A DNA stretch of 64,000 bases from Spirochaetota bacterium (GTDB lineage Bacteria; Spirochaetota; JAHITG01; JAFGFC01): the NCBI GenBank assembly GCA_016931325.1, contig JAFGFC010000051.1:12639-76638 (forward strand). The letters are read 5' to 3'. Positions 447 through 33,675 of the stretch are shown here, in pieces (the first letter of the stretch is position 1; the number at the start of each line of letters is the position of its first letter). Below the pieces are notes generated by a model that worked only from the letters and a program-made list of their open reading frames with translations, had not been told where the DNA came from and made no database searches. The position numbers were made by a program, and so were the translations under genes.

Positions 447-578
447 CTAGAAATTTTTCGAAGAAAAATTTCAGGCCCTGTGAAAATTGAAAATTTTCCA
501 GGATAAAGTCCCTGAAATCCTTTCAGGATTTCCAGGGAGATTTGGTCCCTGGAATTGTCTTTGGACAATTCCTAGGGA
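447..578. repeat. Structured intergenic repeat, family 1, copy 1; rich in TCCAGG/CCTGGA palindromes
   Basis: Shares ordered blocks with 21044-21206: caggccNtgtgaaaat, ggaatttcca, ggataaagtccNtgaaat, ttccagggagatt, ggtccctgga. Contains the inverted repeats ttccagga-taaag-tccctgaa and tccaggga-N8-tccctgga. Confidence 0.5.
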
Positions 579-823
579 TGGATCGTCGAACCTGATTTTT
601 TTTGTCACCTTTAGGCCTTTTCCGGTGTTATACAGGTAGTAGTAAGAGAGGAGGTCAAATACGTCAAGGAGGGGTAGGGATGAATGGGAAAAGATTTATT
701 TCCGTTGAACTGGAAAAGACAGAGGCTCTGGCTCTGCCCTTGCCTTATTTTCTTCTTCGAAATTTTTTCTTGAAAATCTATTTCATTTGGATACCTTTTA
801 TACTGATATTGGCTGTTATTCTT

Positions 824-1393
824 ATGGAAAATATACAGGATACAGAAGATATTCATGTTATTGCCAGAATACAGGGGGGACAAAAGGCTGATTTTGAGTT
901 CCTTTACAAGAAATACCTCCCGCAGGTTTTACGATTTGCCAACCGTATGGTCCGCTCCACGGATATCGCTGAAGAGATCGCTCAGGAAAGTTTTATAAAG
1001 CTGTATACCCATATCGACCGATACAGGCCGGGAAAGGCCAAGTTCTCCACTTACCTCTTTCAGATCACTTACAATACCGCTTTGAATTTTATCCGCTCTC
1101 AGAAACGCGAAAGGGAATCCATAAAAAAAATGAAGGAAGAATTCGATGTTCAGCCATCGTATTCTGACCCTTACAAGCAGGTGGAAAGAAAAGAGATCAC
1201 GCAGTACGTGAAAAGCCTTATCGCTGACCTCCCGCCGCCCGAGGATACCATATTCATGTTAAAAACAGAAAAAAATATGAAATACGAAGAGATCGCACAG
1301 GTTTTAAGTATTTCAAGAAGGACGGTCATCAGAAAGATGAACTCGGCCGTCAGTCGGCTGCAAAAGGCCATGAAAAGTTCTCATATTATATAA
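824..1393 (+). CDS. ECF-family RNA polymerase sigma factor (sigma-70 regions 2 and 4)
   Basis: Region 2 motifs (FEFLYKKYLPQVLRFANRMV, SFIKLYTHIDRY) and region 4 helix-turn-helix (MKYEEIAQVLSISRRTVIRKMNSAVSRLQKA). The frame is open from 602; an alternative ATG at 680 has an AGGAGG ribosome-binding site but would add a hydrophobic N-terminal extension. Confidence 0.8.
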   Translation: MENIQDTEDIHVIARIQGGQKADFEFLYKKYLPQVLRFANRMVRSTDIAEEIAQESFIKLYTHIDRYRPGKAKFSTYLFQITYNTALNFIRSQKRERESIKKMKEEFDVQPSYSDPYKQVERKEITQYVKSLIADLPPPEDTIFMLKTEKNMKYEEIAQVLSISRRTVIRKMNSAVSRLQKAMKSSHII

Positions 1394-1400
1394 TAAAATT

Positions 1401-2492
1401 ATGAAAAAGAAACATATAAAACCCAATGATCTGTTCAAATATTTTTTCGAGACACTGCCCGAGAAAAAAGCCAAAAAGATCAAAGAGCATCTCGACGTCT
1501 GTGAAACATGCCGGGGAGAATTTAAAAAACTGGATACAGTCTTTCAACCGGCCTTGAAACCGGAAGAAAAAGAGATCCCGCAGCACAGGATCGATGCCAT
1601 GTATAAATCTTTTCTGGAGAGGCTGGAAGAAAAAGAAAGATCAGATGAAAAAGTCCCTTTCAGGGGTTTGGTTCTTAAGCCTGCTTTGGTTTTTTCCCTG
1701 GCTGCTTTTGTGATCATGATCGGCTTATGGATCATAACCGCTCCTCTGAGAAGGCCTATTCTTATAACCCAATACACCCAGGAAAAAATACTGATCGACG
1801 GAAAAGAATATGACCTGGCTAAAGTCAAACACCTGCCGCTGGACAGAGTGATCAAAACCCGTGGGCAGATGGACCTGACAATAAGAAGATCAGCCCGGCT
1901 GGTGGTTTCACCTGACACGGAATTCAAGGTTATTAAGAAAGACAAGTATATCTGTTCCTTAAAGCAGGGGCAAATGAAATTAAAGACCCTTGAAAGAAAG
2001 AACCTTTATGTTCAGGTGAACCATTATATGATCAAACCTGTAGGCACGATCTATCAGATAAATTTCAGGGAGAATATCCTGAAAGTCTTTCTTTTAAAGG
2101 GAAAACTTGAATTAGAAAATCTGAAGAATAAAGACCGTTCCTATATGACTCCTTTAAAAGATGTCTTTATCTTTGATTTTACCAGGAATAAGCCGGTTAA
2201 GGATCTACCCACGCTTTCTGCCGGGCAGATCGATGCTCTTGATCAGGCCAAAAGATACGAAAAGAACAAAGACTGGAAAAATGCCCTGGAAATGTATGAC
2301 CATTTCCTGAATAGCAAACCGTCAGATCCTGAAATGGAATCAGAGGCTTTATATCATTCGGGTATTATTTTTTATGAACATTTTCAGAACAGTGAAAAGG
2401 CGCAGGAATATTTTGACAGGCTGTTAAAGCTGAAAGTTTACGAAGATTTTTCAGACAGAATACCCCGGGAATTTTTACATGATAAGAAATAA
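1401..2492 (+). CDS. Zinc-finger (HxxxCxxC) anti-sigma factor with one transmembrane segment and a C-terminal TPR-like region
   Basis: N-terminal KEHLDVCETC (ZAS-type HxxxCxxC motif) directly downstream of the ECF sigma gene. A hydrophobic segment (LVFSLAAFVIMIGLWII) is present, and the C-terminus has TPR-like repeats. Confidence 0.7.
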   Translation: MKKKHIKPNDLFKYFFETLPEKKAKKIKEHLDVCETCRGEFKKLDTVFQPALKPEEKEIPQHRIDAMYKSFLERLEEKERSDEKVPFRGLVLKPALVFSLAAFVIMIGLWIITAPLRRPILITQYTQEKILIDGKEYDLAKVKHLPLDRVIKTRGQMDLTIRRSARLVVSPDTEFKVIKKDKYICSLKQGQMKLKTLERKNLYVQVNHYMIKPVGTIYQINFRENILKVFLLKGKLELENLKNKDRSYMTPLKDVFIFDFTRNKPVKDLPTLSAGQIDALDQAKRYEKNKDWKNALEMYDHFLNSKPSDPEMESEALYHSGIIFYEHFQNSEKAQEYFDRLLKLKVYEDFSDRIPREFLHDKK

Positions 2493-3420
2493 GAGTCACA
2501 ACAAGATCGATCAGACTGTAATCATCATTCTTCTGTTACTTGTCCTGTTGGTCCAGCCGGGCCTGACCCAGATCCTTTCAACAGACGCCAGGATGATGAG
2601 TCTGGGTGAGGCTTTTCATTCTCTGTCAGACGATGTGGACAGCGTCTCTTATAATCCGGCCGGTCTGACCCATTTGAAGAACATCATGTTTTCCTGTTCT
2701 TATCTGCCTGTCTGGGACAGCCTGACCACTGTCTATTTCTTTGGTTTTGCTTATCCTCAAGAGACCATACCCTTCGGGATCGGATTTTTCAATGCCTCAA
2801 CAGACGGCATCCTTATCCGGGCTGATTCTCCCGAAGTGCTGCGCAAAACCCGGTATCAGGATATCAGTCTTTTTCTGGCAGGTGGTTATGCCATTGTACC
2901 GGGAATGTCATTGGGATTAAGACTTAATATGAACTATTTAAAAATTGTCAATTACGATCATTTCCGGCTGGGAACGGATCTGGCTTTTTTATGGCGAATG
3001 GAAAATCCTTACGGGTTTACGAAAAGTAAAATTTTGAGGGCCCTCAAACCCTTTTCACTGGGAGTGACCTTGAACAATCTCTTTTCCACACCTTTAAAAT
3101 TGAAGCAGACCAGTGAAACCGATCCTTTGAATATTTTCAGCAGCCTGTCCTATCGCTTTAAACGGATAGGCCGATTTATAGAACCGGAACTGGGGCTGGG
3201 TTTTGACCTTGTACCGGAGTACAGCGAAAGTTCCATTAATGCAGGACTCGAATTAATTCTCTGGAAGGTCTTATTTTTAAGAAGTGCCTATAAGTTCAGG
3301 GAAGGATCATTTACTCTGGGAACCGGTTTTAGAGCCTGGGATATCAAACTTGATCTGGCTTTATCCAACCTTGAGATCGATCAGAATTTTTACAGTTTCA
3401 GTATTAAGGTAAATTTTTAA
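2479..3420 (+). CDS. Outer-membrane beta-barrel protein, FadL/PorV-like
   Basis: Signal peptide present. N-terminal motif SLGEAFHSLSDDVDSVSYNPAGL resembles the NPA(L) motif of FadL/PorV-type barrels. Alternating amphipathic strands run to the C-terminal residue F. Overlaps the anti-sigma gene by 14 nt. Confidence 0.5.
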   Translation: MIRNKSHNKIDQTVIIILLLLVLLVQPGLTQILSTDARMMSLGEAFHSLSDDVDSVSYNPAGLTHLKNIMFSCSYLPVWDSLTTVYFFGFAYPQETIPFGIGFFNASTDGILIRADSPEVLRKTRYQDISLFLAGGYAIVPGMSLGLRLNMNYLKIVNYDHFRLGTDLAFLWRMENPYGFTKSKILRALKPFSLGVTLNNLFSTPLKLKQTSETDPLNIFSSLSYRFKRIGRFIEPELGLGFDLVPEYSESSINAGLELILWKVLFLRSAYKFREGSFTLGTGFRAWDIKLDLALSNLEIDQNFYSFSIKVNF

Positions 3421-3431
3421 CAGGTGATTTC

Positions 3432-5048
3432 ATGATCAATAAATTTATTATTGTACTCTGCCTCTTATGTTCAGGGGGCCAGATGATCTTATCCGCTCCG
3501 GCCGGGTGGGAGGCTGACTCCATCATTCTGGAAAAGGACGGTTACAAACCCTCGTTAACATCCAGCCACGATAAACTGTTCGTCTCTTATATCAAAAAGA
3601 AAAACAATAATGATCACGTGTTTATAACCATATCCACTGACGGAGGGAACCACTGGCTCGAAGAAAAAAAGATAAGCCTTGATTTCCAATGCGATAATCC
3701 CCGGGTCATTTTTCATGACAGGGTTCTTTATGTCTTCTGGACACAATACAGGGAAGATCAGAGTGATATTTATTTCTCTTATTCCCTTGACCCTTCTTTT
3801 TCCAGGTTCAGCCCCCCTTATAATATCACGGATAATCCTTCTGATTCCATCGAACCTGTTGTTTCATCATCAGAGGAAACGATCCATCTTTTATGGTCAG
3901 ATGATTCCTCGGGTGATTACGAGATTTTTATAAAAACTTTTCATCCTCAGGAAAAAACATGGCGCCAGCCAGTTCAGATTACCCGTTTCAGCGGAGGGGC
4001 TATTTACCCTTCTGTTCTGACACTGATGAACGATATTCATCTCAGCTGGCAACAAAGGGACGGCAAGAACTGGAAAGTGATGTATTCTTCCAGCTCTGAT
4101 GCTGAGGACTGGACCGGTCCTGTCTGCATCTCTGAAGGATTGGATAATGCGTATACACCTTATATCAGCACCTCTGTTGACGGGATCCTTGTCCTCTTCC
4201 AGGGGGAGAACGATGCACAGAGCGATTTGTTTTCATGCTTTTATGATCTTTTTTATAACAGATGGTCAACCCCCTTGCCTGTGACACATGATCTTTTTAT
4301 TCAGAGATACCCTGTCTTTATTCCTTCCGGTGCGGTCCAGAACCTTTTCTGGCAGGGTATAGAAAATGACCAATCCACGATCTTTGCTTCTACCAGCTCG
4401 GATAGCGGTCTCACGTGGAGTGAAAAAATCAATATGATCCCCGGCGGGGATAATACTAAATATTTTTCTGCTTTTTATAACACTTTTGATGATACCATTT
4501 ATCTGATATGGGAGGACGAGAAAGGGCAGATCCGTTTAAAAAAACAGGACAAGTATTGTTCCAAACCTTCCATATTTAAATCTTCCCATAAGGAAGATCA
4601 GTGGTCTTTCAGAAAGGATGTCGAGGTCCATTGGAATATTGATGATGATACCTCCGGTATTCAAGATTATGCTTATCTATTAGATCAGAATGAGGATACT
4701 GTTCCTGATTTCTTTTTAATCAAGCATCCCGTGACTCAAGCCCGTTTCTATAATGTAAAAGACGGGATCTGGTATTTCCATCTGCGGGCCAGAGACAAGA
4801 AGGGCAATATCAGCCCGGCTGTCCATTACAAGATCATGATCAATTCAGAGCTTTACGCCTCATCAGAAAAATATTATATCATTAAATATGGAGATACCCT
4901 GTGGGATGTGGCCAAGAGCTTTTATAAAGAACCCACGATGTATAAAACTATAGCTGATTATAATCAGATCGAAGATGAGAATTGGATCTATCCCCATCAA
5001 ATTTTAAAAATACCGCCTAAAGAGGCTGTCGAGACATTACACAGATAA
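3432..5048 (+). CDS. Secreted BNR (Asp-box) repeat protein with a C-terminal LysM domain
   Basis: Signal peptide present. Asp-box motifs (STDGGNHW, SSDSGLTWS). C-terminal LysM (YIIKYGDTLWDVAKSFY...YNQIEDENWIYPHQILKIP). Confidence 0.6.
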   Translation: MINKFIIVLCLLCSGGQMILSAPAGWEADSIILEKDGYKPSLTSSHDKLFVSYIKKKNNNDHVFITISTDGGNHWLEEKKISLDFQCDNPRVIFHDRVLYVFWTQYREDQSDIYFSYSLDPSFSRFSPPYNITDNPSDSIEPVVSSSEETIHLLWSDDSSGDYEIFIKTFHPQEKTWRQPVQITRFSGGAIYPSVLTLMNDIHLSWQQRDGKNWKVMYSSSSDAEDWTGPVCISEGLDNAYTPYISTSVDGILVLFQGENDAQSDLFSCFYDLFYNRWSTPLPVTHDLFIQRYPVFIPSGAVQNLFWQGIENDQSTIFASTSSDSGLTWSEKINMIPGGDNTKYFSAFYNTFDDTIYLIWEDEKGQIRLKKQDKYCSKPSIFKSSHKEDQWSFRKDVEVHWNIDDDTSGIQDYAYLLDQNEDTVPDFFLIKHPVTQARFYNVKDGIWYFHLRARDKKGNISPAVHYKIMINSELYASSEKYYIIKYGDTLWDVAKSFYKEPTMYKTIADYNQIEDENWIYPHQILKIPPKEAVETLHR

Positions 5049-5067
5049 CGATCATACCTATAGCGAA

Positions 5068-7764
5068 ATGAAAAAGAATATCCTTTTCATCATTTATTTA
5101 TTAACTTTAAAAATGTTATGTGCCTATAACGGTTCTATCCAATCAGGGGTAAAGAATGCCGGGATGGGTTTTACCGGCGTTTCCTATTACGCTCATCCTT
5201 CTTCGATGAACTATAATCCCTCTCTTCTTCTGGCTCATCGATTGAACCAGATTTCTATGGAATATACTTTCAATGATAACAGAGCTCTGAACCTTTATAA
5301 TTTAAATTATCTAAAAAATGTTGATAAAAATCTCTCTTTTGGTCTGGATCTTGTCTTTTTTAAACCCAGGAATGAAACGGTCCTGGACTCATCTGGAGGG
5401 ATCTTAACAGAGTCCATTGACAGGCTTCATGTGCTGACAGCGGGAGCGGCCTTTAAAATGGAACAAGGATTGAACGGCGGTTTGAATATCAAGATCCTGA
5501 ATCATGACACGACGGATGGCTCTCTCACCCTGTTGAGCTTGAGCCCCGGATTGTTATACAGCCCTTCTTTTCTGAAAGATCTGAATTGTGGCATCAGTTT
5601 TCAGAATCTTCTTTTAACCAAAGGGGAATTGAACGGCCAGGAAAAAAAAGAGCCTTTTAACATCAAAGCCGGATTAAGCTACAAATGGGATATGGTCCAT
5701 CATGATTTTCTGATAAGCGCGGATTTCAATTCAGATAAGGATGATCTTTCAACTCTGGCGGCCGGTCTGGAATACACATTATACGACCGGTACAGTCTTC
5801 GGATCGGGTATAATGAGCAGAATGAATTCACCATGGGAGCCGGCCTGACCATCGCTTCTTTTCAGATGGGGTATGCCTATCATAAACATAACACTGACGG
5901 CATTAACCACACCATCGGTGTTACTTATCTTTTCCCCTATCAGATGAGCCTGAGTGAAAAGGAATATCATTATCGAAAAGGCATCATGTATTATAATGAT
6001 TTTAATTTTGAGAGATCCTTGAGATTTTTCAAACCCCTGTACGAATCAGACAGGCATTTCAGGGAAACCGCCTATTACTATGATCTTTTAGAAAAACGCC
6101 TGAAGATGGAGCGGATGAAGCAGGCCAGGCGGTTCAAGCAGGCGGAAGAATTGTATCAGGAAGCCATCCTCTATTATAAAGGAGGCGATGAAAAATTAAC
6201 CGTCCGGAAACTGATAGACTGCTTGAAGATCAATCCCAAACATCAGGATGCGAAAGAACTTTTATACCGTATCCGTCAGATTGAAAGAGAAAAAAACAAC
6301 AGAGAAAAAGCCAAGCTGAGAATAAAGGAAGGGGATTCCTATCTTTTAGAATCCAATCTCCCCGCGGCTCTGGTGGAATACCAGCAGGCTCTTATACTGG
6401 ATCCCGAGAACGAAGCCGTTATGAAACGGATAAATAAGGCCAGAACCGAACTCTCCCGGAAAGATGTTCAGGCTATAGCCAGCCGGCTTTTTACAGAAGG
6501 AGAAAATCTCTATCAGAGCGGGCTTTACAGTAAAGCCATCATGAAATGGAAAGAATGCCTGGCTGCCAAACCGGATTTTCTCCAGGCCCGGGAAAAAATT
6601 GATAGAACAGAACTGACCATAAAAGAAGGAGAAGAGAAACGTCTTTTAGACAGGATAACATCCGACCGGATCGATGAGCTCATCAGTATCGTTAAATATC
6701 AGATGGATAAAAAAGAATATGAACAGGCTCTTTTAAATATAGAAGAGCTTTTAGAACTTGATCCGGCCAACTCGCTGGGTAAAGGATTACGATCCCAGAT
6801 CATTCAGTCAAGAACAAGCCGTGATAAAGATCAAAACAATAAAAATAAAGCTCTGGCGAAAAACCATTTTGAAAAAGCCGCAATGTTTCAACGATCAGGC
6901 AAGTGGGAATCAGCCCTTTTTCATCTGGCCAAGGTGGTCTATTATGACCCGTCTCAAGCCCGATCAATAAAAGAATTAAAGAATATCATGAATAAGATAT
7001 CCGGCCTGGAGGCACAGGGGATAAATCAAGACTCTGCTGTTTACCGTATCATCATGATCCATTATCTCAGAGGTATGGAATATTATAAAAATGAAAGATA
7101 TCAACTCGCCGCCGGGGAGTGGAAAAGAGTATTAAAAATGGTACCTTTTCATCCTCAGGTTAACAGCGATCTGTCCGGGCTTGAAAAAAAGATCACATTA
7201 AAAGAAAAGGACAAAGACCTGGAAGGCCTGCTGGAAGTGGCCTATCACTATTTCTCCAGTGAAAATTACAAAAATGCCAGAGAGGTTGTCAACAGGATCC
7301 TCGCTCTGGACCCTGAAAATGCCAAAGCCAGAGAACTGGCTCAGAGGATAGAGGAAAGGGAAGTGGATATGGATCTGGCGCGTGTGGATAAAAAACGGAT
7401 CATCAAACTTTACAGTGAAGGCGTTGATTGTTACGTTAACAGAGATTATGATAAATGCATCACGAGCATGAAAGCCATTATTCAGATCGATCCGGATAAT
7501 ATCAGGGCTATGAAATTCATTGAAAAGGCCAAAGAAAAGATAAAAGAGACATCCCTGGTTGAGGAATCAAAAAAGAAAGAAGAAGAGAAGAAAAAAGTCC
7601 TCTGGCAGCATTATATAAAAGGGATCAATTATTATAAGAATGATCTGCTGGACAGGGCTATAAGAGAATGGGAAAAAGCGCTAAAGATCGATCCCGACAA
7701 TGATAGAATAAAAAATGCTCTGGATAAGGCCAGGGTCAAGCAGGAAATGATCAAAGCGTTTTAG
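5068..7764 (+). CDS. FadL/PorV-like outer-membrane barrel fused to a long C-terminal TPR-repeat domain
   Basis: Signal peptide present. N-terminal GMGFTGVSYYAHPSSMNYNPSLL motif and beta-strand pattern over about 300 aa, followed by about 600 aa of TPR-like repeats (many Y/N/K/A-rich 34-aa units). Confidence 0.55.
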   Translation: MKKNILFIIYLLTLKMLCAYNGSIQSGVKNAGMGFTGVSYYAHPSSMNYNPSLLLAHRLNQISMEYTFNDNRALNLYNLNYLKNVDKNLSFGLDLVFFKPRNETVLDSSGGILTESIDRLHVLTAGAAFKMEQGLNGGLNIKILNHDTTDGSLTLLSLSPGLLYSPSFLKDLNCGISFQNLLLTKGELNGQEKKEPFNIKAGLSYKWDMVHHDFLISADFNSDKDDLSTLAAGLEYTLYDRYSLRIGYNEQNEFTMGAGLTIASFQMGYAYHKHNTDGINHTIGVTYLFPYQMSLSEKEYHYRKGIMYYNDFNFERSLRFFKPLYESDRHFRETAYYYDLLEKRLKMERMKQARRFKQAEELYQEAILYYKGGDEKLTVRKLIDCLKINPKHQDAKELLYRIRQIEREKNNREKAKLRIKEGDSYLLESNLPAALVEYQQALILDPENEAVMKRINKARTELSRKDVQAIASRLFTEGENLYQSGLYSKAIMKWKECLAAKPDFLQAREKIDRTELTIKEGEEKRLLDRITSDRIDELISIVKYQMDKKEYEQALLNIEELLELDPANSLGKGLRSQIIQSRTSRDKDQNNKNKALAKNHFEKAAMFQRSGKWESALFHLAKVVYYDPSQARSIKELKNIMNKISGLEAQGINQDSAVYRIIMIHYLRGMEYYKNERYQLAAGEWKRVLKMVPFHPQVNSDLSGLEKKITLKEKDKDLEGLLEVAYHYFSSENYKNAREVVNRILALDPENAKARELAQRIEEREVDMDLARVDKKRIIKLYSEGVDCYVNRDYDKCITSMKAIIQIDPDNIRAMKFIEKAKEKIKETSLVEESKKKEEEKKKVLWQHYIKGINYYKNDLLDRAIREWEKALKIDPDNDRIKNALDKARVKQEMIKAF

Positions 7765-7857: not shown

Positions 7858-8925
7858 TTATTGTGCCTTTAATTTCCTCTCCATTTTCTTGATCCTGTTC
7901 AGCATCGCCAGCGCTTCTTTGCCGTATTTGGAGTTTTTATCAAGTTCGATCACCTTGTAAAGCATCTCCTTGGAATCCTCTATCCTCTGCTGGGCATAGT
8001 AGAACTTGGCTTTTTCAAGATAAAATTTCTGATCTTTCAATATATCTTTCTTCGACATGACCTTTTCTTCATCATCTCCCTCCATTATGGTTTCTTTCTC
8101 CTTTTCTCCTTTTTCTGAACTGTAGAAAAGGTTAGGAAAGCGATGGTAATAGGAAAGAATGAGAAGCGTGAATCTTTTCTTCTCTTTATCCCACCGGGAT
8201 GAAAGATAGATATTTTCAAGATCGTAATTAAAATTATACCCCAGCCCGGGTACAAGATATTCTTTCTGCAAGCCGGCCAGCATATAAAGGCCTTTGATAA
8301 GATTTATGTCAAAGGACAAGGAGTAATCCGTTATATCAGACATATCCTTTGGTAATAAAAGACCGGTCAAAAATTTTATATCATCAGTAACTTTAAGGGT
8401 AGATCCCATGTTTATCGTCATGGGCAAAAGATTATGATCTGTGGCATTTTTCAGGCTGGCTCCCAGGTCCCACCATTTTAAAATCCTTAACAGGAATCCC
8501 ATGTCAAAATCGCTGAATTTTATTTTTTTACCGTCCTTGTCTATGATCACATATTTATAGGACAGGCCATATTTAAGAAAACGGATCAATGTTCCCCCTA
8601 TCCCGATTAAAAACTGTTCATAATGATCTTTCTTTTCCATGCCCAGCCCTATATTAAGGGACGTCCAGTAGTATTGGCTTAAGCATGGAAATCGTGTCAG
8701 ATAGTAACCCATATAAAATGATGAAAAAGTAAATTTCTCGGAAGTGGATAAGGCTATCTGGCCCAATGATTTGGATAGATTGAAAAGTGTGGCCGGGTTG
8801 TAAGAAAGCCCTGATATATCTTCACCCAGAGTCACAGATCCATATTTATGGACCTCATTCCTCGCTGAAAAACCCAACAGGGTGTTGATCATCAGCATGA
8901 ATAAGATAAAAACTCTTTTAACCAT
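7858..8925 (-). CDS. FadL/PorV-like outer-membrane barrel with a short C-terminal TPR-like tail
   Basis: Signal peptide present. SVTLGEDISGLSYNPATLFNL motif. The C-terminal EKAKFYYAQQRIEDSKEMLYKVIELDKNSKYGKEA is TPR-like. Its start overlaps the stop of the upstream GGDEF gene by 8 nt. Confidence 0.5.
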   Translation of the reverse strand: MVKRVFILFMLMINTLLGFSARNEVHKYGSVTLGEDISGLSYNPATLFNLSKSLGQIALSTSEKFTFSSFYMGYYLTRFPCLSQYYWTSLNIGLGMEKKDHYEQFLIGIGGTLIRFLKYGLSYKYVIIDKDGKKIKFSDFDMGFLLRILKWWDLGASLKNATDHNLLPMTINMGSTLKVTDDIKFLTGLLLPKDMSDITDYSLSFDINLIKGLYMLAGLQKEYLVPGLGYNFNYDLENIYLSSRWDKEKKRFTLLILSYYHRFPNLFYSSEKGEKEKETIMEGDDEEKVMSKKDILKDQKFYLEKAKFYYAQQRIEDSKEMLYKVIELDKNSKYGKEALAMLNRIKKMERKLKAQ

Positions 8926-10780
8926 ACGTAACCTGGTTCCTTCCTTTCTCCTTAGATTGATATAAGGCTTTATCTGCTCTTTCGATCAACTTTTTAGAAT
9001 CAATTGATGAATCCATGGACGAAGATACCCCTATGGAAATAGTCACCTTTAATTTTTTACCTCTGGATGTGGTAACCGTCATCTGCTGGACCTCTTTTCG
9101 GATCCTTTCGGCTGTATGCAAGGCATTTTCTTTATCGGTATCCGGCAAAAGAATGCCAAATTCTTCGCCGCCATAACGTCCGGCTATGTCATTTCTCACC
9201 CTGTTCTGGCGAATATGGGCCAGGATCACACCGGCCACTCTGGCCAGGACCAGATCCCCTACTTGATGGCCATAGGTGTCATTGAATTGTTTGAAATGAT
9301 CAATATCGGTCATTAACAATGATGTGGATCTTTTTTCCTTTCCGGCATTGGCCAGTTCGCTCTTTAACGTGCCCATAAAATACCGCCTTGCCATCAGTTT
9401 GGTCAGCTGATCCTCTGTGGCCTCTTTATACAATTTTTCATATTTCGATAATTCCTGTGTCAGCTGGTCTGCCAGATGATTGAAGGTATGGGCAAATTTA
9501 CCGAACTCGTCTGTCCTTTTCATCTTGATCCTGAATTTAAGGTCTTTCAATATCTCATCCGCCCCTTTATCCAGTTTATGGATGGGATAAACAATATAAA
9601 AGGCAAGGGCCAGCCCGGCTATAATACTGAATAAAAGGATCGTGGTTGAAGAAAAAATGCCCTGCATGAGAATAGGCGCTATTTTATGGCGTATGGCATC
9701 GTCCGATATGCCGATCTCATAATACCCCACCGTATTGTTGGCCCAGGTGATCTTTCTGAACATCCTGATAATATCAACATTATCATGAACGGGGAAGGCG
9801 CGGGCCTTGAAAAACAGCTTGGCTTCATAAAACTGTTTCAGGTCCTCATCAATCCTTTCAAGATTTTTCATGATATGGTTGATATTCTTCTTTACCTTGA
9901 ATATCAGATTTTGAAAGGGATATATTTCCTGGATGTTCCTCAAAGGCCTGGAAACATTTTTATTCTTTTCAAGGATATTGTCCATCCTTTTCATGCTTTC
10001 ATGCAATGACAGGTTGATCCTGTTAAGTGTTTTGATCCTTCTGTCCTGACTGCGTGATGACAGGTCAGAGTAGATGATGCTCAGCTTTTTTTCGTAGACC
10101 GGAGAACGTTCTTTTACCAGTTCCCGTAATTTATTAATCTGACGGACCTGTTCCGGGAGCAGCCTGTTGGCGTAATGAAAAAGAGCCCTCGCCTGCTTTA
10201 TCCTCTCTTTAATATTCTTAATCTGACCCATGATCTGGTTGGATGAAATGATCTGGTTGTTGATGCTGATAAATCGGTTAAAGTTGCTGTTGATAGAATA
10301 GAACTCCCTCATGTCCCTTTCATATTCTTCTCTGTAATCGTTCACCACATAATATTTTTCATTGACCGTGTCCACTTTTTCAAAGGCTTTTGAGCTCTTC
10401 CTTTTTATGACTCTTTTTCTGGTTTCCACCTCGTTGCGGGTTATTTCCAGTTCTCTTTTCCCCATGTCAAGCAGCACAAGATTCTTTTTATAGATGTACT
10501 CCGCGCGGTTAATAACATCAAGCACCTTAAGATAGATCAGCTCTTCATTGACATCAAACACCTTCAGGAGGATGACATTTAAATTCTCCAGGCCGGCATT
10601 ATTTAAAAGCTGCTCGGCGATGATATTGTTGTTGTTCTCCAGATTCTGGCTTATCCGGTGTATGATCTCGCTCTTTAACCTTGGTTTATACTGGGTATTG
10701 GAAAGATAAAGGATCGTGATACTCAGACTGAGCACGAGGAGGATAGTAAGGAATATAATAACCGTATATTTTATACTCAT
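8918..10780 (-). CDS. Membrane-anchored diguanylate cyclase (GGDEF) with a large coiled-coil-rich periplasmic region and a HAMP-like linker
   Basis: Two transmembrane segments. C-terminal GGDEF domain (DIDHFKQFNDTYGHQVGDLVL...RYGGEEFGILLPDT...KALYQSKEKGRNQV). Confidence 0.85.
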   Translation of the reverse strand: MSIKYTVIIFLTILLVLSLSITILYLSNTQYKPRLKSEIIHRISQNLENNNNIIAEQLLNNAGLENLNVILLKVFDVNEELIYLKVLDVINRAEYIYKKNLVLLDMGKRELEITRNEVETRKRVIKRKSSKAFEKVDTVNEKYYVVNDYREEYERDMREFYSINSNFNRFISINNQIISSNQIMGQIKNIKERIKQARALFHYANRLLPEQVRQINKLRELVKERSPVYEKKLSIIYSDLSSRSQDRRIKTLNRINLSLHESMKRMDNILEKNKNVSRPLRNIQEIYPFQNLIFKVKKNINHIMKNLERIDEDLKQFYEAKLFFKARAFPVHDNVDIIRMFRKITWANNTVGYYEIGISDDAIRHKIAPILMQGIFSSTTILLFSIIAGLALAFYIVYPIHKLDKGADEILKDLKFRIKMKRTDEFGKFAHTFNHLADQLTQELSKYEKLYKEATEDQLTKLMARRYFMGTLKSELANAGKEKRSTSLLMTDIDHFKQFNDTYGHQVGDLVLARVAGVILAHIRQNRVRNDIAGRYGGEEFGILLPDTDKENALHTAERIRKEVQQMTVTTSRGKKLKVTISIGVSSSMDSSIDSKKLIERADKALYQSKEKGRNQVTYG

Positions 10781-10889: not shown

Positions 10890-12356
10890 ATGGATATGCC
10901 AAGTAAAAAACCATGGCTTGAGCAAGTATTGTATGTTATGTGGGTGCTAACCGCTTTGATCCTGTCATTTTCATTCCTGTCGGCGGACATTTTTTTAAAC
11001 AAGGCGAAAAAAGTGCTAAACTTATCCGGAGTGGAGGACCGGATAAAGGAATTAAAGAATCCTTCTTCCCCTGCCAACGGGGAAGAAGAACCCATCGATG
11101 CGCGGGTGACAGTAAAGAAAAATCCTGACGGCACATGGCAGCTCTTTGTGGATGATAAACCATTTTTTATAAAGGGGATGATCTTTAACCCGGCCAAGAT
11201 CGGAGAGGACCCGGGGATCCCTAACCTGCGGGACTGGATGCTTTACGATGATAACGCTAACAGCACCAATGATATCGCCTTTGAGACCTGGGTGGACACG
11301 AATCTGAACAATATCAAGGATGCCACAGAACCTCTGGTTGGGGATTTCCAGCTCTTAAAAGATATGGGCTGTAATACCATCCGGCTCTATCATGTTCCGT
11401 CAGACAATCCTATCCTGGGCAATATCTACAAGATCGAACCCGGGGTCCAACTCCAGTATGATCATGCTGTGAATAAATCTCTTTTACGCAAACTCTACAA
11501 TGATTACGGTATTATGGTCATCATGAGCCATTTTCTGGGTTCATGGACCATCGGCGCCGGGGTCAGCTGGGCAGAAGGTTGTGATTATACAAACAGCACG
11601 CATCGGGAAAACATAAAAACTTCGGTCAGGGCCATGGTCCTGGACAATAAAGATGAACCCTATGTTCTCATGTGGCTTCTGGGGAATGAGAATAACATCG
11701 CTGATTTTTCTAAATGCAATGCGGTCCAGCATCCCGTGGCTTATGCCCAGCTTATAGGGGAACTGGCCCGGATGATCAAAGAGATTGACCCTCATCATCC
11801 TGTGGCGGTCTGCGACGGGGACGGATACCGCTGGTTCGCTGACCCCTTTAACACCTTGCGGGAATACCCTGATTACGCCCAGGCTGTTGATATTGTGGCT
11901 TTTAACTCTTACCATGGATCTAACGGTTTTAATCCCTATATCTGTTCCAATGTCAAATATACCTTTGACAGGCCCATCTTTTATTCCGAGTACGGCATGT
12001 TCGCCTATGATAATAATGTGGGATATGATGAGATGCTTCAAAAAAAATATCATACCAATTACTGGAAGGACATTGTTCTCCAGAGCGCCAGCAACCTGAA
12101 CATTCCACAGGAACAGTACGGGAATTGCATCGGCGGAGTGGTCTTTGACTGGTGCGACAGATGGCACATGGACGGCAATCCCTGGGCGCATGACGTCAGC
12201 ACGAACCCGGCCACTTATTCCCCCGATGGGTTAAGGCATGAAGAATGGTTCGGCGTCACCTCCATGGGAATCGGATCAGATACCTTGATGCGGCAGAAGA
12301 GGTCGGCCTATGATTATTATAAGAATGTCTGGAACAGGACCAATCTCACCTATTGA
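10890..12356 (+). CDS. Glycoside hydrolase, TIM-barrel clan GH-A (GH2/GH5-like), N-terminally membrane-anchored
   Basis: N-terminal transmembrane segment. Motif DEPYVLMWLLGNENN resembles the NHPSIIxWSLGNE acid/base region of clan GH-A enzymes. Family assignment is uncertain. Confidence 0.5.
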   Translation: MDMPSKKPWLEQVLYVMWVLTALILSFSFLSADIFLNKAKKVLNLSGVEDRIKELKNPSSPANGEEEPIDARVTVKKNPDGTWQLFVDDKPFFIKGMIFNPAKIGEDPGIPNLRDWMLYDDNANSTNDIAFETWVDTNLNNIKDATEPLVGDFQLLKDMGCNTIRLYHVPSDNPILGNIYKIEPGVQLQYDHAVNKSLLRKLYNDYGIMVIMSHFLGSWTIGAGVSWAEGCDYTNSTHRENIKTSVRAMVLDNKDEPYVLMWLLGNENNIADFSKCNAVQHPVAYAQLIGELARMIKEIDPHHPVAVCDGDGYRWFADPFNTLREYPDYAQAVDIVAFNSYHGSNGFNPYICSNVKYTFDRPIFYSEYGMFAYDNNVGYDEMLQKKYHTNYWKDIVLQSASNLNIPQEQYGNCIGGVVFDWCDRWHMDGNPWAHDVSTNPATYSPDGLRHEEWFGVTSMGIGSDTLMRQKRSAYDYYKNVWNRTNLTY

Positions 12357-17289: not shown

Positions 17290-18841
17290 AAGGGTTCAAA
17301 CCGATCATGGCAAAATATCGCCACAATGTACTGGAAATACAGAAGACAAATCTATATTTTTTCTCTTCACTGAAGGAACCGGCCAGTCCGTTGCCGATCC
17401 TGGATGACCGGGCCAGGGGCCACCAGTCATTAAAGGCGTAGACGAACTGCTTGTCTTTTATGATATGGGAAACATACGGGAGCTCGTTATTTTCCGAACG
17501 GGTTATTAAATCTATATATCGATTCATCTCATCAACATAAAACCTGTACTTTTTTAAGAATGATTCCGCTGCTCTGTTTTCTGATCTGCCCACAGCATAA
17601 TCAGCCAGCATATTGTAATCCAGAGCCATCTGTCCTGTGCCCTCCCACCAGATCATAGGTTGATCCCGCCTCTGGCTGTAGGCCTCTTTAATGGTAAAAT
17701 CAAATCCCCAGAATTTTTCCCCCTGCACCATAACCTCTACCCTGAATTTATCCTCTGCCTGTCTCACCAGTTCTATAGGATCTATGCCCATCCTGTCCAG
17801 GTCTTCAGGCCCGATCCCGCATATGGCCCATGAATTAACATCCAGGGCTTCGAGCGTATCCACAACATACTCCCATTTCCCCTTTACTTTGGTAGGGCCG
17901 TATCCACCCCGGTTAAAGGTTCCCCTCTGGTTCCAGGCTATTCTTTTGAACCAGTTTTGCGTGGCCAACTTTTCTTTCTCGATATCTTTAAAGGAAATAT
18001 CATTCTTTTTCATTATGGCCAGGACCCGGTTGTCTTTCATGTTGACCATGGCCAGACAATTCTTTAAAAAGGCATAATAGTCAATAATGTTCTCAGTGGA
18101 AAATACCTTCTGCCAGTCAGGTCCCCAACCGTATCCCATGCTGGGAGCGCCTCTTTCTCCCTGAGGCAATGTGTAATGCGTAAAATCCCTGGCCCAGTTG
18201 AACATCTTCATCACAAAATCAACAAATAAAAGCGATCGCGTTCTAAAATAATAAAACTGGGCCGCCAGCCCGACCCATATATTAGGACCGATATGGATCC
18301 TGTCCCCGTCAATACCCATAACCAGCTGGTTGTATTTTCCGGGTTTGGTATAAAAATAATGGTCAAACATGGTCACATCATAGGCATTAAAAAGCCCGAG
18401 ACAGTTGTTCTTCCTGAGTGAAAAATTATCCTCGAACAAATGCAGCATGTACTCGGCTTTTTCATAATCCTCCATATCGATCATGGCGATCAAGACCAGG
18501 GCATTGTCATACAAAAAAGCCTGACTGTCAAGGTATCCTTTTTCGGTGCGCATGAGAGGGATCTCAAGGAACCTGACATCTTCGATCCAGTTCGCGGTAC
18601 CGGTAAAACTCTGATAAAGCCCTGTTGTTTTTACCTCTATGGATTGTAAAAATCTTTTCAGCTTTTTTCTTTCATCACTGACACCGGGGAAGACCTTGTG
18701 AGACAAGATCAACAATAACAGGATGATCCAGATTACTTTTTTTGTATAAAGCGTCAGCATGATCTTTTTATTCCCTATCCGTATAATATATTTCATCAAG
18801 ATAGAATACTGATCCCTGGGAGTTATTCTGATAACTGACAA
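17261..18841 (-). CDS. Hypothetical membrane-anchored protein, possibly (alpha/alpha)6 glycosidase-like
   Basis: N-terminal transmembrane segment. Motifs AFLYDNALVLIAM, GYGWGPDW and WWEGTGQ suggest a six-hairpin glycosidase fold. Not firmly assignable. Confidence 0.35.
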   Translation of the reverse strand: MSVIRITPRDQYSILMKYIIRIGNKKIMLTLYTKKVIWIILLLLILSHKVFPGVSDERKKLKRFLQSIEVKTTGLYQSFTGTANWIEDVRFLEIPLMRTEKGYLDSQAFLYDNALVLIAMIDMEDYEKAEYMLHLFEDNFSLRKNNCLGLFNAYDVTMFDHYFYTKPGKYNQLVMGIDGDRIHIGPNIWVGLAAQFYYFRTRSLLFVDFVMKMFNWARDFTHYTLPQGERGAPSMGYGWGPDWQKVFSTENIIDYYAFLKNCLAMVNMKDNRVLAIMKKNDISFKDIEKEKLATQNWFKRIAWNQRGTFNRGGYGPTKVKGKWEYVVDTLEALDVNSWAICGIGPEDLDRMGIDPIELVRQAEDKFRVEVMVQGEKFWGFDFTIKEAYSQRRDQPMIWWEGTGQMALDYNMLADYAVGRSENRAAESFLKKYRFYVDEMNRYIDLITRSENNELPYVSHIIKDKQFVYAFNDWWPLARSSRIGNGLAGSFSEEKKYRFVFCISSTLWRYFAMIGLNPFDATVPRIE

Positions 18842-19451
18842 CCCAGCAGAAGCCGCCTATAATATAGGAAAGGTCAATACCCTTTAATGAGATCTGGTAA
18901 CGTTTCCACTTTTTACTTAAAGTGACAACCATCTCATCGGTACACCCGGAATCAGGATACGGTCCTCTGACACCACCCATGGTAAATCTGACCTCTTCTC
19001 CTCCCTGTTCCCCCCTGGCGTAGAAAACAAGTTTGGTGGCTCCCCTGAGGTCATATCCCTGATGGGGGATAAAGCCCCAGTTATTGGCCGGATTCAACCA
19101 GAAAACCCCGGCCCAGTGTTCTTCGTTCATCTCAGGATCAAAGACAGGGTCATAGACCACTTTAATGCAGCTGATCCCCTGGAAAGGTTTTTGTTTGCAG
19201 TTGCCCCAGAATCGTATGGTCAAATAATCTCCCATCCGGCCTGTCGGAAAATAGTGTACATTACCGATGGAGCCGTAGTTTTTATAGAGATAGAAGGGAA
19301 ATGTAACTTTTTTACCTTTCAGATTCAAGGGAATCTTATTCTCATAAGTTTTATTATTATTATCGCTGTAATCCGGGACATTATAATAAGTAAAAGAAAA
19401 TACCAGTCCCAGAGCCAGAATAATGTATAGTTTATTTCTTCTCGATATCAT
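18768..19451 (-). CDS. Secreted paralog-family protein A (unknown beta-sandwich or CBM-like family)
   Basis: Signal peptide present. Shares FYARGxxGxEVxF, LSKKWKRYxIxL, GGF and YLDEIYY motifs with 19461-20087, 20325-20984 and 32948-33595. Confidence 0.5.
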   Translation of the reverse strand: MISRRNKLYIILALGLVFSFTYYNVPDYSDNNNKTYENKIPLNLKGKKVTFPFYLYKNYGSIGNVHYFPTGRMGDYLTIRFWGNCKQKPFQGISCIKVVYDPVFDPEMNEEHWAGVFWLNPANNWGFIPHQGYDLRGATKLVFYARGEQGGEEVRFTMGGVRGPYPDSGCTDEMVVTLSKKWKRYQISLKGIDLSYIIGGFCWVVSYQNNSQGSVFYLDEIYYTDRE

Positions 19452-19460
19452 CTTATCCCT

Positions 19461-20087
19461 TTATCTCTCGATCTTTATCTCATCAATATAAATGGTGACC
19501 AATTCCTTGCGATACTGTTTATGGTCCATCCATCTCATGGCCAGAGAAAATCCAAGACTGATATGGGTTAGATCCTCTTTATCCAGGAGGATGGTATATT
19601 TTTTCCATTGTCGTGTTAATTTGACCGGCCCATAGAGGATCTCTGTAGAATCAGAGAACGTGCCGTAATTCCCGCCGAATTTAAAAATGACCACTTCATC
19701 TCCCTTCTTTCCCCTGGCATAAAAGGTCAGCTGTCGGGCCCCTGTAAGGTCCAGCCCGCCATCAATATTGCCCCAGTTATAGCTGGGGAAGGTCCAGTTG
19801 ATGCTGATCCAGTTAAATACCGATTGCCGCCTTGTGTTATATTCGAATTTCATGCAGTAATTCCCGGTTTTGGGTTTTTCCGTGCAGAACTGGTTATACT
19901 GAATGCAGAGAACATCACCGCCCCAGCAGGTGGGAGCATAAAATGAACGCTCCGTCCAGATATCACCATCCAGATAAATAACGACAGGATATTTTTGCGG
20001 TTTGTAGGCATAACCATAAAGACTGTTATTTATCAGGCCGACCATGAGAAAAAATATTATAAATACAGGACAGATGCTTCTTCTCAT
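19461..20087 (-). CDS. Secreted paralog-family protein B
   Basis: Signal peptide present. Motifs FYARGKKGDEVVIF, LTRQWKKYTILL and IYIDEI shared with paralogs A, C and D. Confidence 0.5.
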   Translation of the reverse strand: MRRSICPVFIIFFLMVGLINNSLYGYAYKPQKYPVVIYLDGDIWTERSFYAPTCWGGDVLCIQYNQFCTEKPKTGNYCMKFEYNTRRQSVFNWISINWTFPSYNWGNIDGGLDLTGARQLTFYARGKKGDEVVIFKFGGNYGTFSDSTEILYGPVKLTRQWKKYTILLDKEDLTHISLGFSLAMRWMDHKQYRKELVTIYIDEIKIER

Positions 20088-20324
20088 TTCCTTTTTCCCC
20101 AGTTCATTCTAATGTAACGGAAATAATCCAGTTCGTCAACATGAAATCATCAGCCATCCCCCGGAAATGAAGAGGGCCGGTTTGCTTTAGCAAATCCGAC
20201 CCTTTTGTTTTCTTGAGGATGCTTTAGAAGTTTTGGTTGATTTGGTTGATCCGGCAAGAATTATACTCAGTATATATATATTCCTTGCTCATCACACCTT
20301 TTTTAAAAGAACGATCCAAAACTT

Positions 20325-20984
20325 TTAATTTAATTCATTATAAGCGGTTCTCTGTGCAGAGAGACTGGTTGATTCTTCATTATTGGAATAATAGACATCA
20401 TCCACATAGAATGTGCAACCATCAGGATTATCCTTGGCATAAAGGACAAATCCAAAACCACCGGCTATATCCTTCAATTCCAAACAACTCAGGTCTATTT
20501 CATATTTTTTCCATTCTTTGGAAAGAACGATCTTTTTACTGGTCTTTGAATCCTTTGGGTTTTGCTGCCTTGTTCTGTTCATGCTGAATTCAACGACCTC
20601 ATTGCCATGCTTTCCCCTGGCATAGAAATATACTTTTTTAGCGGGAGTCAGATCATATCCGCCACGTATGGAGATCCAGTAATTATTGGGATTGGACTGA
20701 AAATACAGACCGGCCCATCCATCACCTTCACCGGCTGCGGTATAGGTGACTCTCAGAGCAGAAGAGCCGGAGCGGGTATTCTTATCCCATCTGTTGTCCA
20801 TTCGGATGTCCCGGATATCTCCCATCCAGCCGCTCGGAATGCCTCTATCCAATTTGCTTTCAGCATTGGAATAGATATAAAATGGGTAACGCAACACCTT
20901 GTAACTCATAAGAAAATCATCATCTTCAGCTAAAAGGATTGATCCCATTGACAAAACAATTAAAATAAGGAGTAGTCTTTTCAT
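20325..20984 (-). CDS. Secreted paralog-family protein C
   Basis: Start at MKRLLLIL with an AAGGAGG ribosome-binding site. Motifs PSGWMGD, YFYARGKHGNEVVEF, LSKEWKKYEIDL and FYVDDVYY. Closest to paralog D. Confidence 0.55.
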   Translation of the reverse strand: MKRLLLILIVLSMGSILLAEDDDFLMSYKVLRYPFYIYSNAESKLDRGIPSGWMGDIRDIRMDNRWDKNTRSGSSALRVTYTAAGEGDGWAGLYFQSNPNNYWISIRGGYDLTPAKKVYFYARGKHGNEVVEFSMNRTRQQNPKDSKTSKKIVLSKEWKKYEIDLSCLELKDIAGGFGFVLYAKDNPDGCTFYVDDVYYSNNEESTSLSAQRTAYNELN

Positions 20985-21043
20985 GATATTTACCTCCTTT
21001 CCCCTTTTCATTAGTAAGGACAATGGTCAGGGAAAAAAGTGCA

Positions 21044-21206
21044 AGAATTTTTTTTAATATTTGAGGATTCAGGCCGTGTGAAAATCAGCCCTCTGGAATT
21101 TCCAAGAGAAATTCCGAGGATAAAGTCCTGGAAATTTCTCTAGAAATTTCACAGGAAGATCTTCCAGGGAGATTCAAGGGGTCCAGGGTTCCTGGACCCC
21201 TTGAAT
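21044..21206. repeat. Structured intergenic repeat, family 1, copy 2; contains a perfect 16-bp-arm hairpin at 21172-21206
   Basis: Collinear sequence blocks with 447-578. attcaaggggtccagg-gtt-cctggaccccttgaat is a perfect inverted repeat. gaaatttct-ct-agaaatttc is also palindromic. Confidence 0.5.
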
Positions 21207-21339
21207 TCTTATTCGAAATAAAGATATCCGTGTTAATCCGCCATGGGGGCCTTTAGGCTCTGGTTACTCTTAAAAAACTTGACTTGGGGCCTTCGGGGCA
21301 ATATTTTAGAGTTTCAAGCCAAGGTATAGGGAGACAATC

Positions 21340-32947: not shown

Positions 32948-33595
32948 TTAATTGATTTTATTTTTTGTTGCGCTTACCCTTCCTACTGTATCAATCATCT
33001 CATCCTGATTGGTGTAGTAAATCTCATCAATATAGAATGTCACTGTGCCTGAATTATCGCTGGCTTTTACCAGGACCGAGAATCCACCGGCCATATCCTC
33101 AAACTTGTTGTTTAATTCGAGTTCGTATTTCTTCCACTCTTTTGAGAGTTCAATTCTTTTAGAGATCTTTGCCTGCTGCCCTTTCAGAGGGGCCATTCTG
33201 AATTCAACAACTTCATCACCTTTGTTACCTCTGGCATAGAAATAAATCTTTTTGGCTGTAGAGAGGTCATATCCGCCTCTTATCGATGTCCAGTGGTTAT
33301 AAGGATTCTGCGCAAAATTCAATGAAGCCCATTTTGCTCCGACTGTTTCAGCGCTGTATTCGATCTTCATACAGCTTGTTCCTTTCTTGGGATTGATCGT
33401 CCATTTGTGGTCGATCTTCAGATCCCTGAAATCTCCTGCCCACCCGCTGGGTATACAATTATTAATACGGCTCGTACCGTCTTTGTAGACCTGGAAGGGG
33501 TAACGCAGAACCTTAAAGCATTTTAAATGTTCAGTATAAAGATTGAGAACCATTAACCCGACGATCAAAATGACAACAACCATTAACTTTTTCAT
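32948..33595 (-). CDS. Secreted paralog-family protein D
   Basis: KVLRYPFQVYKDG...PSGWAGD...YFYARGNKGDEVVEF...LSKEWKKYELEL...FYIDEIYY; about 45-50% identical to paralog C by eye. Confidence 0.55.
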   Translation of the reverse strand: MKKLMVVVILIVGLMVLNLYTEHLKCFKVLRYPFQVYKDGTSRINNCIPSGWAGDFRDLKIDHKWTINPKKGTSCMKIEYSAETVGAKWASLNFAQNPYNHWTSIRGGYDLSTAKKIYFYARGNKGDEVVEFRMAPLKGQQAKISKRIELSKEWKKYELELNNKFEDMAGGFSVLVKASDNSGTVTFYIDEIYYTNQDEMIDTVGRVSATKNKIN

Positions 33596-33675
33596 GGCTT
33601 TTTACCTCCTTTTCCCTTTTCATTAGTAAGGACAATGAAAAGATAAAAAAGTGCAAGAATTTTTTAGAAAAAATC

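Follow-up and report, generated by a model that had tools for sequence, protein, structure and literature searches.

We have analysed a 64,000-nucleotide stretch (the window) of the 93-kb contig JAFGFC010000051.1, from a metagenome-assembled genome (MAG) labelled 'Spirochaetes bacterium' (sample SRR13394437), and within it a cluster of five genes coding, in order, for an extracytoplasmic function (ECF) sigma factor, a membrane anti-sigma factor, a PorV/FadL-type outer-membrane beta-barrel (barrel 1), a secreted protein with BNR and LysM domains, and a second barrel fused to a long tetratricopeptide repeat (TPR) region. We propose, as narrowly probable, that these genes form one unit, in which the sigma factor and the membrane anti-sigma cognate to it are tied to three outer-membrane/peptidoglycan proteins, a module that is both partner and target of the switch. 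Judged by sequence comparison, genes 3-5 are a paralogue of an accessory set found in or beside the Tad/Flp pilus clusters of related genomes. The functional claims made throughout are comparative and concern uncultured organisms, and the comparison of neighbourhoods covers ~15 loci, numbered here with the prefix L.

The cluster has the packing of an operon because its gaps are of at most 19 nucleotides (nt), with one 14-nt overlap, and terminator and promoter prediction found no convincing internal terminator or promoter. All five open reading frames lie on the plus strand within 602-7764 (Table 1), and the first four are placed identically by an independent gene caller on an identical 4.5-kb contig, where the sigma gene starts at ATG 680. 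The anti-sigma gene (1401) begins after a 7-nt gap from the end of the sigma gene (1393), and the ATG of barrel 1 at 2479 falls within the last codons of the anti-sigma gene (...GATAAGAAATAA, stop at 2492). Barrel 1 (3420) is separated by 11 nt from the BNR-LysM gene (3432), and this (5048) by 19 nt from the barrel-TPR gene (5068). The picture of five co-directional genes with short or overlapping junctions, drawn in the first-pass annotation of this DNA, thus holds, with gaps of 7, -14, 11 and 19 nt. Such packing suggests that the five genes are co-transcribed as a single transcription unit. A convergent gene on the minus strand starts 93 nt past 7764, and a fold scan found no strong terminator between the two.

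Gene 1 is, by its domain content, an ECF (group 4) sigma-70 factor, as had been annotated. It matches Sigma70_r2 (PF04542; 76.3 bits, 1.6e-21), r4_2 (PF08281; 33.6 bits) and TIGR02937 (110.3 bits, over its cut-off of 42.9), and Pfam and NCBIfam gave no match to region 3 or region 1.1, so that the protein carries just regions 2 and 4. Among the specific models the Bacteroidetes-type TIGR02985 scores best, with 125.2 bits under a cut-off of 126.4. The start of the gene is uncertain, because a Shine-Dalgarno sequence (AAGGAGG, 666-672), 7 nt upstream, favours ATG 680, while the alignment with the closest full-length relative, from L088, begins only at residue 49, which is ATG 824. A start at ATG 680 would give the protein a 48-residue N-terminal extension with a transmembrane-like hydrophobic stretch (IYFIWIPFILILAVIL), which is missing from the L088 relative; either the segment 680-823 would tether the sigma factor to the membrane, or the start at 680 is mis-called.

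Gene 2 is, by its domains, a single-pass anti-sigma factor with a cell-surface-signalling domain of the FecR/PupR type. The protein carries the motif H30-x3-C34-x2-C37 and a single transmembrane helix (residues 92-113), and its AlphaFold model shows N-terminal helices, this helix, a beta domain (120-260) and a TPR segment (274-349). A word-indexed homologue search returned only the protein itself; a HMMER scan of 1.84 billion representative proteins found three full-length relatives, with 28-36% identity, and wherever the upstream sequence is visible (L087/L095 and L088) a sigma gene lies directly upstream, as it does here. In L087/L095 (3-780) the sigma gene lacks its first ~35 residues and directly follows an rve-type transposase gene; it was probably truncated by the insertion of an insertion sequence (IS). 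The HxxxCxxC motif is kept in three of the four family members (the window protein, P0024 and P0025) and lost in P0026, in which the periplasmic domain is retained. The earlier label of zinc-binding anti-sigma (ZAS) factor is right about this motif and tentative as a family assignment: the motif is what the label stands on, the match to Pfam zf-HC2 (16.9 bits) is below the cut-off of 22.2, that to RsiW has an E-value of 0.32, and one of the four family members has no motif. Of the anatomy described with that label, the motif, the single transmembrane segment and the C-terminal TPR stand, whereas the periplasmic part proved to be mainly the FecR-type beta domain, with just two TPR motifs.

The beta domain follows the single transmembrane helix, the position expected of a FecR-fold periplasmic domain, and comparison of the model with known structures showed that it resembles Parabacteroides BDI_1681 and the FecR/PupR fold. 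The score against Pfam FecR (17 bits) is below the cut-off, and a profile of the periplasmic domain matched no sequence in the PDB, so the link to FecR is drawn from the structure comparison and from a weak hidden Markov model (HMM) alignment. A Gly-Thr pair, G215-T216, does not vary among the five family sequences, and the best HMM alignment, although of low significance (E 0.07, from a search of a single target), puts it on G181-T182 of FecR. In FecR this pair is the experimentally mapped self-cleavage site (PMC12036975). Two TPR motifs take the place of the C-terminal subdomain with which FecR and PupR bind their transducer, and no TonB-dependent receptor is encoded in the operon; the window has a single one (25245-27113), which consists of Plug and barrel, has no STN domain and belongs to a metal-uptake cluster. 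From these comparisons, the sigma/anti-sigma pair is a variant of FecR-type signalling that would work without a TonB-dependent transducer.

In the FecI-FecR-FecA and PupI-PupR-PupB systems (ECF groups 239-243), as in the window, an ECF sigma factor is paired with a single-pass regulator that has the FecR/PupR fold and a Gly-Thr at the self-cleavage position (in the window, by the weak alignment just described), and the gene for an outer-membrane protein adjoins that of the regulator. In contrast to those systems, the window operon has neither a TonB-dependent transducer nor an STN domain, the transducer-binding subdomain is exchanged for TPR motifs, the anti-sigma has the ZAS-like HxxxCxxC and no twin-arginine before the transmembrane helix, and the adjoining outer-membrane proteins are of the PorV/FadL type. 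FecR-like regulators without a TonB receptor partner have been described among the spirochaete members of ECF242 (PMC7826278), and the TonB receptors of Leptospira have no N-terminal signalling extension (PMC12155086). The window pair shares with spirochaete ECF242 and with Leptospira LIC_12757/LIC_12756 this absence of a receptor partner; it differs in that its best sigma model is the Bacteroidetes-type one and in its barrel, LysM and TPR neighbours, which are not described there. A proteobacterial ECF group, compared by description only, also has a putative anti-sigma that combines FecR-like and TPR parts, although that group is associated with protein kinases and is distant from the FecI clade.

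Is the pair linked to the module in other organisms? In L089, which comes from another sample, a gap of 27 nt separates the C-terminus of an anti-sigma (46% identity) from a homologue of barrel 1 downstream (tblastn gives 52% identity; for protein P0023 it is 55%), and the junction between anti-sigma and barrel thus recurs in a second organism. In L095 a sigma gene truncated by an IS precedes the anti-sigma gene (36% identity), after which come a PAS gene, a hybrid kinase gene and a split gene for a BNR protein with an immunoglobulin (Ig)-like domain; this BNR-Ig protein is related to gene 4 (E 2.5e-23) and is coded on the same strand ~3 kb downstream of the anti-sigma. The PAS and hybrid histidine kinase genes occupy 2387-4949 of that locus. 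The sequence of L088 ends 200 nt after its anti-sigma gene. The linkage between pair and module is conserved elsewhere, but rarely.

The two barrels belong to one family. By hhalign there is homology between barrel 1 and the first 290 residues of gene 5 (probability 98.7%, E 3.6e-16), and the two align with the whole length of NF033709, the model of the PorV/PorQ family, with E 1.2e-17 and 64.6 bits for barrel 1 and 2.2e-20 and 73.5 bits for gene 5 (cut-off 90). PorV (6h3i_F) was the only significant sequence match in the PDB, at E 3.5e-5 for the barrel 1 profile and 1.8e-10 for that of barrel-TPR. Gene 5 also matches PF11751 (PorP_SprF) and TPR_2 (97 bits), and its TPR region shows weak TPR-level matches to PilW (1.7e-10) and Tgl. 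Both proteins are outer-membrane barrels, as had been annotated; of the NPA(G/S)L motif assigned to the pair, barrel 1 has its version, YNPAGL, and barrel-TPR departs from it with YNPSLL. A word-indexed search with barrel 1 found almost nothing but itself, and homologues of 39-53% identity are present in L089, L004, L011, L012 and L006. Those of gene 5 are 994-1016 residues long and lie in loci of relatives that also hold Tad/Flp genes. In barrels of the FadL/PorV type the two termini are expected on the periplasmic side, which would place the TPR region of gene 5 in the periplasm. The window barrels share with PorV/PorQ in type IX secretion systems (T9SS) and with FadL/TodX homology across the whole barrel and an N-terminal NPAxL-type motif; unlike PorV, the window barrel is ~100 residues shorter and has no T9SS context, and one of the two is fused to a TPR region that none of the matched Pfam/NCBIfam models covers.

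The third component, the product of gene 4, carries the Pfam domains BNR_2 and LysM, which confirms its description as a BNR/Asp-box protein with LysM. Its AlphaFold model (mean pLDDT, the predicted local distance difference test, 87.2) shows a six-bladed propeller of the sialidase fold, an Ig-like domain and the LysM, with Asp-boxes at residues 68-75 and 320-329. The best Foldseek match was 5muk (E 2.5e-11, TM 0.71), and the top structural matches of the propeller were the GH145 enzyme BT3686, sialidases, GH93 and PL25, those to GH145, sialidases and GH93 at probability 1.0. Full-length homologues numbered ~15 among 5.8 billion proteins. Six blades and Asp-boxes are shared with the sialidase/GH33-type BNR propellers, whereas a conserved catalytic Arg triad is unlikely: no invariant or nearly invariant arginine was found in the propeller (residues 25-372) across 15 homologues, and sialidase activity, which we had considered for gene 4, is therefore unlikely. 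Through its LysM the protein would sit on peptidoglycan. Archaea, Patescibacteria, Poribacteria and Goldbacteria also have the Ig-like domain (residues ~375-470, motif DGIWYFHL) in large proteins (loci L013-L086), and it seems to be a widespread surface-protein domain that has not been named.

Homologues of genes 3-5 keep company with pilus genes in several relatives. In L009, genes for RcpC/CpaB, a secretin, a DUF2085 protein, TadB and TadC are followed by those for an FG-GAP/TPR protein, a BNR-LysM homologue and a barrel-TPR homologue (1008 residues). In L006 the order is TadC, a barrel 1 homologue (39-41% identity), a second PorV-family barrel, an FG-GAP/TPR protein, a Flp pilin of 59 residues, a TadE-like gene, a BNR-LysM homologue, a DUF1573 protein and a barrel-TPR homologue. 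L002/L008, L005, L090 and L093 are similar to L009 and L006 and are likewise linked to Tad genes, and small proteins of L006, L005, L090 and L002 carry the Flp pilin motif G/xxxxEY. In L004/L007, L010, L011 and L012 the module is present and the flanks, as far as they are visible, show no Tad gene. The Tad/Flp company thus belongs to the homologues in L002/L008, L005, L006, L009, L090 and L093, not to the window copy. Two paralogous sets can be found in one genome, as with L007 and L009 in one MAG and L011 and L012 in another. The window protein MBN1897751.1 and the Tad-linked paralogue P0012 of L005 (MBN1897693.1) come from the same sample, with accessions 58 apart, and very probably from the same MAG, which would then hold a second, Tad-linked copy. 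The members of the set are two PorV-family barrels, one of them extended by a TPR region of ~600 residues, the propeller-Ig-LysM protein and, in relatives, the FG-GAP/TPR protein. It is a conserved set previously undescribed, and the literature on FilD/FadL pilus systems or on ECF sigma factors with a Flp pilus yielded nothing on it.

Two side observations concern these loci. The FG-GAP beta-propeller and TPR protein, of ~685-700 residues, accompanies the set in L002, L006, L009, L011, L012, L090 and L093 and is absent from the window operon. In L012 a gene for a HAMP-SpoIIE (PP2C) phosphatase (5020-6591) lies upstream of barrel 1.

TadD and PilF/PilW/Tgl are TPR outer-membrane pilotins, and FimV is a LysM peptidoglycan binder. 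The module recalls these helpers of pilus secretins in combining an outer-membrane-anchored TPR with a LysM protein, and in its place in the pilus clusters of relatives. The TPR region of gene 5, unlike that of the pilotins, is held by a fused PorV-type barrel and not by lipid, and is three to four times longer; the product of gene 4, unlike FimV, is a soluble propeller and not a membrane protein. The likeness is limited to generic TPR and LysM domains.

Table 1. Features of the window in and around the five-gene cluster, the genes of the operon first
Feature	Position	Strand	Details
ECF sigma factor	680..1393 (or from 824)	+	Region 2 ~902-1108; region 4 ~1205-1366; Pfam and NCBIfam matches
Anti-sigma factor	1401..2492	+	HxxxCxxC 1488-1511; transmembrane helix 1674-1739; FecR/PupR-type beta domain 1758-2180; Gly215-Thr216 2043-2048; two TPR 2220-2447
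Barrel 1	2479..3420	+	PorV/FadL-superfamily outer-membrane beta-barrel; signal peptide; YNPAGL 2653-2667
Propeller-Ig-LysM protein	3432..5048	+	Secreted; propeller 3504-4547; Ig-like domain 4554-4841; LysM 4875-5015
Barrel-TPR	5068..7764	+	PorV-family barrel 5068-5937; YNPSLL 5215-5229; ~600-residue TPR region 5950-7761
Hairpin/repeat element	520..575	+	Between upstream RND-pump gene (end 364) and sigma gene; terminator-like match 530-554
GAAC...GTCA motif	588..607	+	GAAC 588-591; GTCA 604-607; 12-nt spacer
Alternative candidate GAAC-N16-TCTGG	707..731	+	7 sites in the window (2.85 expected); low information content
Neighbouring gene	7858..8925	-	355-residue protein; SYNPATL motif; short C-terminal TPR-like tail; no Pfam/NCBIfam match

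We propose that the anti-sigma is a chimera of a helical, HxxxCxxC-bearing sigma-binding domain, a transmembrane helix, a FecR/PupR-type domain with its Gly-Thr and two TPR motifs. A change in the assembly of the module, or in its load, would be relayed by TPR or propeller contacts to the periplasmic domain of the anti-sigma, which would then be cut by sequential proteolysis in the manner of FecR, freeing the sigma factor and raising transcription of the operon. By analogy with FecA-FecR-FecI, the module may thus both feed the switch and be induced by it. The protein contacts, the cleavage, the signal and the regulon are those that such a scheme would predict. In a bolder version, which we consider doubtful, a PorV/FadL-type barrel complex (barrel, barrel-TPR and peptidoglycan-bound propeller), derived from a Tad accessory set, would replace the TonB-dependent receptor as the FecR-type transducer, and the sigma factor would report the assembly or the mechanical state of a pilus-type machine. 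If this were true, the long-missing outer-membrane partner of the spirochaete FecR-like regulators would be identified. The operon and L089 put a FecR-type regulator directly before a PorV-type barrel, which makes that barrel a concrete and testable candidate for the partner and hints at what FecR-type switches sense when the TonB-dependent receptor is missing. The scheme would also give barrels of the PorV/PorQ family a role outside type IX secretion, and the Tad-linked set suggests that outer membrane and cell wall are tied to a pilus machine in an unusual way.

Several observations weigh against this proposal. The model of the anti-sigma is of moderate confidence (mean pLDDT 69.9, from four sequences in the alignment), the alignment of its Gly-Thr with that of FecR is weak, as said above, and hhalign with E. 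coli FecR gave an alignment over another region than that of G215-T216. The junction between anti-sigma and barrel is kept in just one other sequenced organism. Of the BNR-LysM relatives whose upstream sequence can be seen, the closest (L004/L007) has barrel 1 and no sigma/anti-sigma pair, and in L087/L095 PAS and histidine kinase genes, not a barrel, come after the anti-sigma. No credible ECF promoter was found for the operon. Finally, no Tad gene is present anywhere in the 64-kb window, and a pilus role for the window copy is an extrapolation.

The first-pass annotation had in essence read the operon as a generic envelope-stress ECF regulon, in which the anti-sigma senses redox through HxxxCxxC, or a general perturbation, and the barrels and the LysM protein are passive outputs with no link to a pilus. 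That annotation took no account of the place that these putative outputs have, as a conserved module, in the Tad/Flp loci of relatives. The conservation of HxxxCxxC in three of the four members of the anti-sigma family, the layout of the operon, which is typical of autoregulated ECF units, and the lack of Tad genes in the window all suit this reading. We nevertheless think it unlikely, as the fold of the periplasmic domain, that of FecR/PupR with an invariant Gly-Thr, is specialised to relay signals from an outer-membrane partner; the family member that has lost HxxxCxxC still keeps this domain; and the sigma/anti-sigma family recurs beside barrel 1 or BNR-Ig genes.

In Bacteroidetes, ECF sigma factors with FecR-like anti-sigmas control polysaccharide utilization loci (PULs), and a system of that kind in the window would have a glycan-active or glycan-binding propeller and barrels that import the product or relay a glycan signal. 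The Bacteroidetes-type sigma model, the likeness of the anti-sigma to Parabacteroides BDI_1681, the glycoside hydrolases and lyases that are the closest folds of the propeller, and a GH2-like gene at 10890-12356 would be expected of it. The operon has, however, neither SusC/SusD nor a TonB-dependent transducer, the propeller has no invariant arginine, the LysM points to peptidoglycan, and the homologues lie among genes for TadE, Flp and secretins and not among carbohydrate genes. The GH2-like gene itself is outside the operon, with two minus-strand genes between, and is divergent from a diguanylate cyclase gene. We accordingly hold a PUL-like system to be quite improbable.

A little less credible again is a fortuitous adjacency, in which the pair and the three-gene module are independent and came to lie side by side through rearrangement. 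L004/L007 and the Tad loci do have the module with no sigma/anti-sigma pair, and L088 and L087 show no barrels in the visible sequence. This is countered by the 14-nt overlap between the stop of the anti-sigma and the start of barrel 1, by the same junction in another organism at ~50% protein identity, and by the third and more distant pair, that of L095, with its BNR-Ig gene downstream on the same strand.

That the barrels are PorV/PorQ orthologues of a T9SS, with the BNR-LysM protein as cargo or attachment factor, could be read from the PorV-family and PorP_SprF matches and from PorV as sole significant PDB sequence match, and is rejected by the equivalog cut-offs (NF033710 for PorV, 19.9 and 30.6 against 250; NF033711 for PorQ, 28 and 29.4 against 220) and by the genomic context, with no core gene (SprA/Sov, PorKLMN) in the window or in the ~15 related loci and a gene 4 product that ends in LysM and not in a T9SS C-terminal domain, so that we give it next to no weight. 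To our knowledge, the T9SS is taken to be restricted to the Fibrobacteres-Chlorobi-Bacteroidetes superphylum. In the spirochaete Brachyspira pilosicoli, barrels of the PorV/PorQ family whose role is unknown have already been reported (10.1101/2025.01.03.631275), which also speaks against this interpretation.

We return to the region upstream of the operon, where an ECF promoter (GAAC, 16-17 nt, GTCA) had been suggested ahead of the sigma gene. In known ECF promoters ~16-17 nt separate the two elements, and the motif found here is not a canonical ECF promoter because its spacer is of 12 nt; 16 is the distance from start to start. The pattern GAAC-N12-GTCA occurs at seven sites in the window against 1.13 expected, a count that none of 100 shuffles reached, and most of the sites are outside promoter positions. 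They lie at 588, 2931, 17188, 18574(-), 47284(-), 54397 and 63378, and their spacers have no mutual similarity. GAAC-N16-TCTGG is a weak candidate promoter, and would be meaningful only if the sigma gene starts at 824. No motif was common to the regions upstream of the sigma genes of the window and of L088. The hairpin in the same intergenic region (fold free energy -21.5 kcal/mol, z = -2.7) likely acts as a terminator, or as an insulator against transcription from the upstream efflux-pump gene (a resistance-nodulation-division, RND, pump). The repeat to which it belongs (440-575) is a degenerate counterpart of an element at ~21060-21215; both are intergenic and have hairpins of the CCAGG/CCTGG type, with a stable fold in the copy ahead of the sigma gene.

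The gene that converges on the operon, at 7858-8925, resembles the PorV-type barrels in its motif only. An 8-nt overlap joins it to a gene for a HAMP-GGDEF diguanylate cyclase (8918-10780, minus strand), with which it is apparently co-transcribed. This product may be a third barrel with a TPR-like tail, in a pair linked to cyclic di-GMP and convergent with the ECF operon. The motif proposed for the sigma gene was looked for ahead of this unit, as that of another barrel-TPR gene, and was absent; a sigma-70-like promoter is present there instead, at 10839-10812. Elsewhere in the window, on the minus strand (18768-21023 and 32948-33595), there is a family of small paralogous genes with no Pfam match, two of which have 65-nt upstream sequences (20989-21053 and 33601-33665) that are 91% identical.

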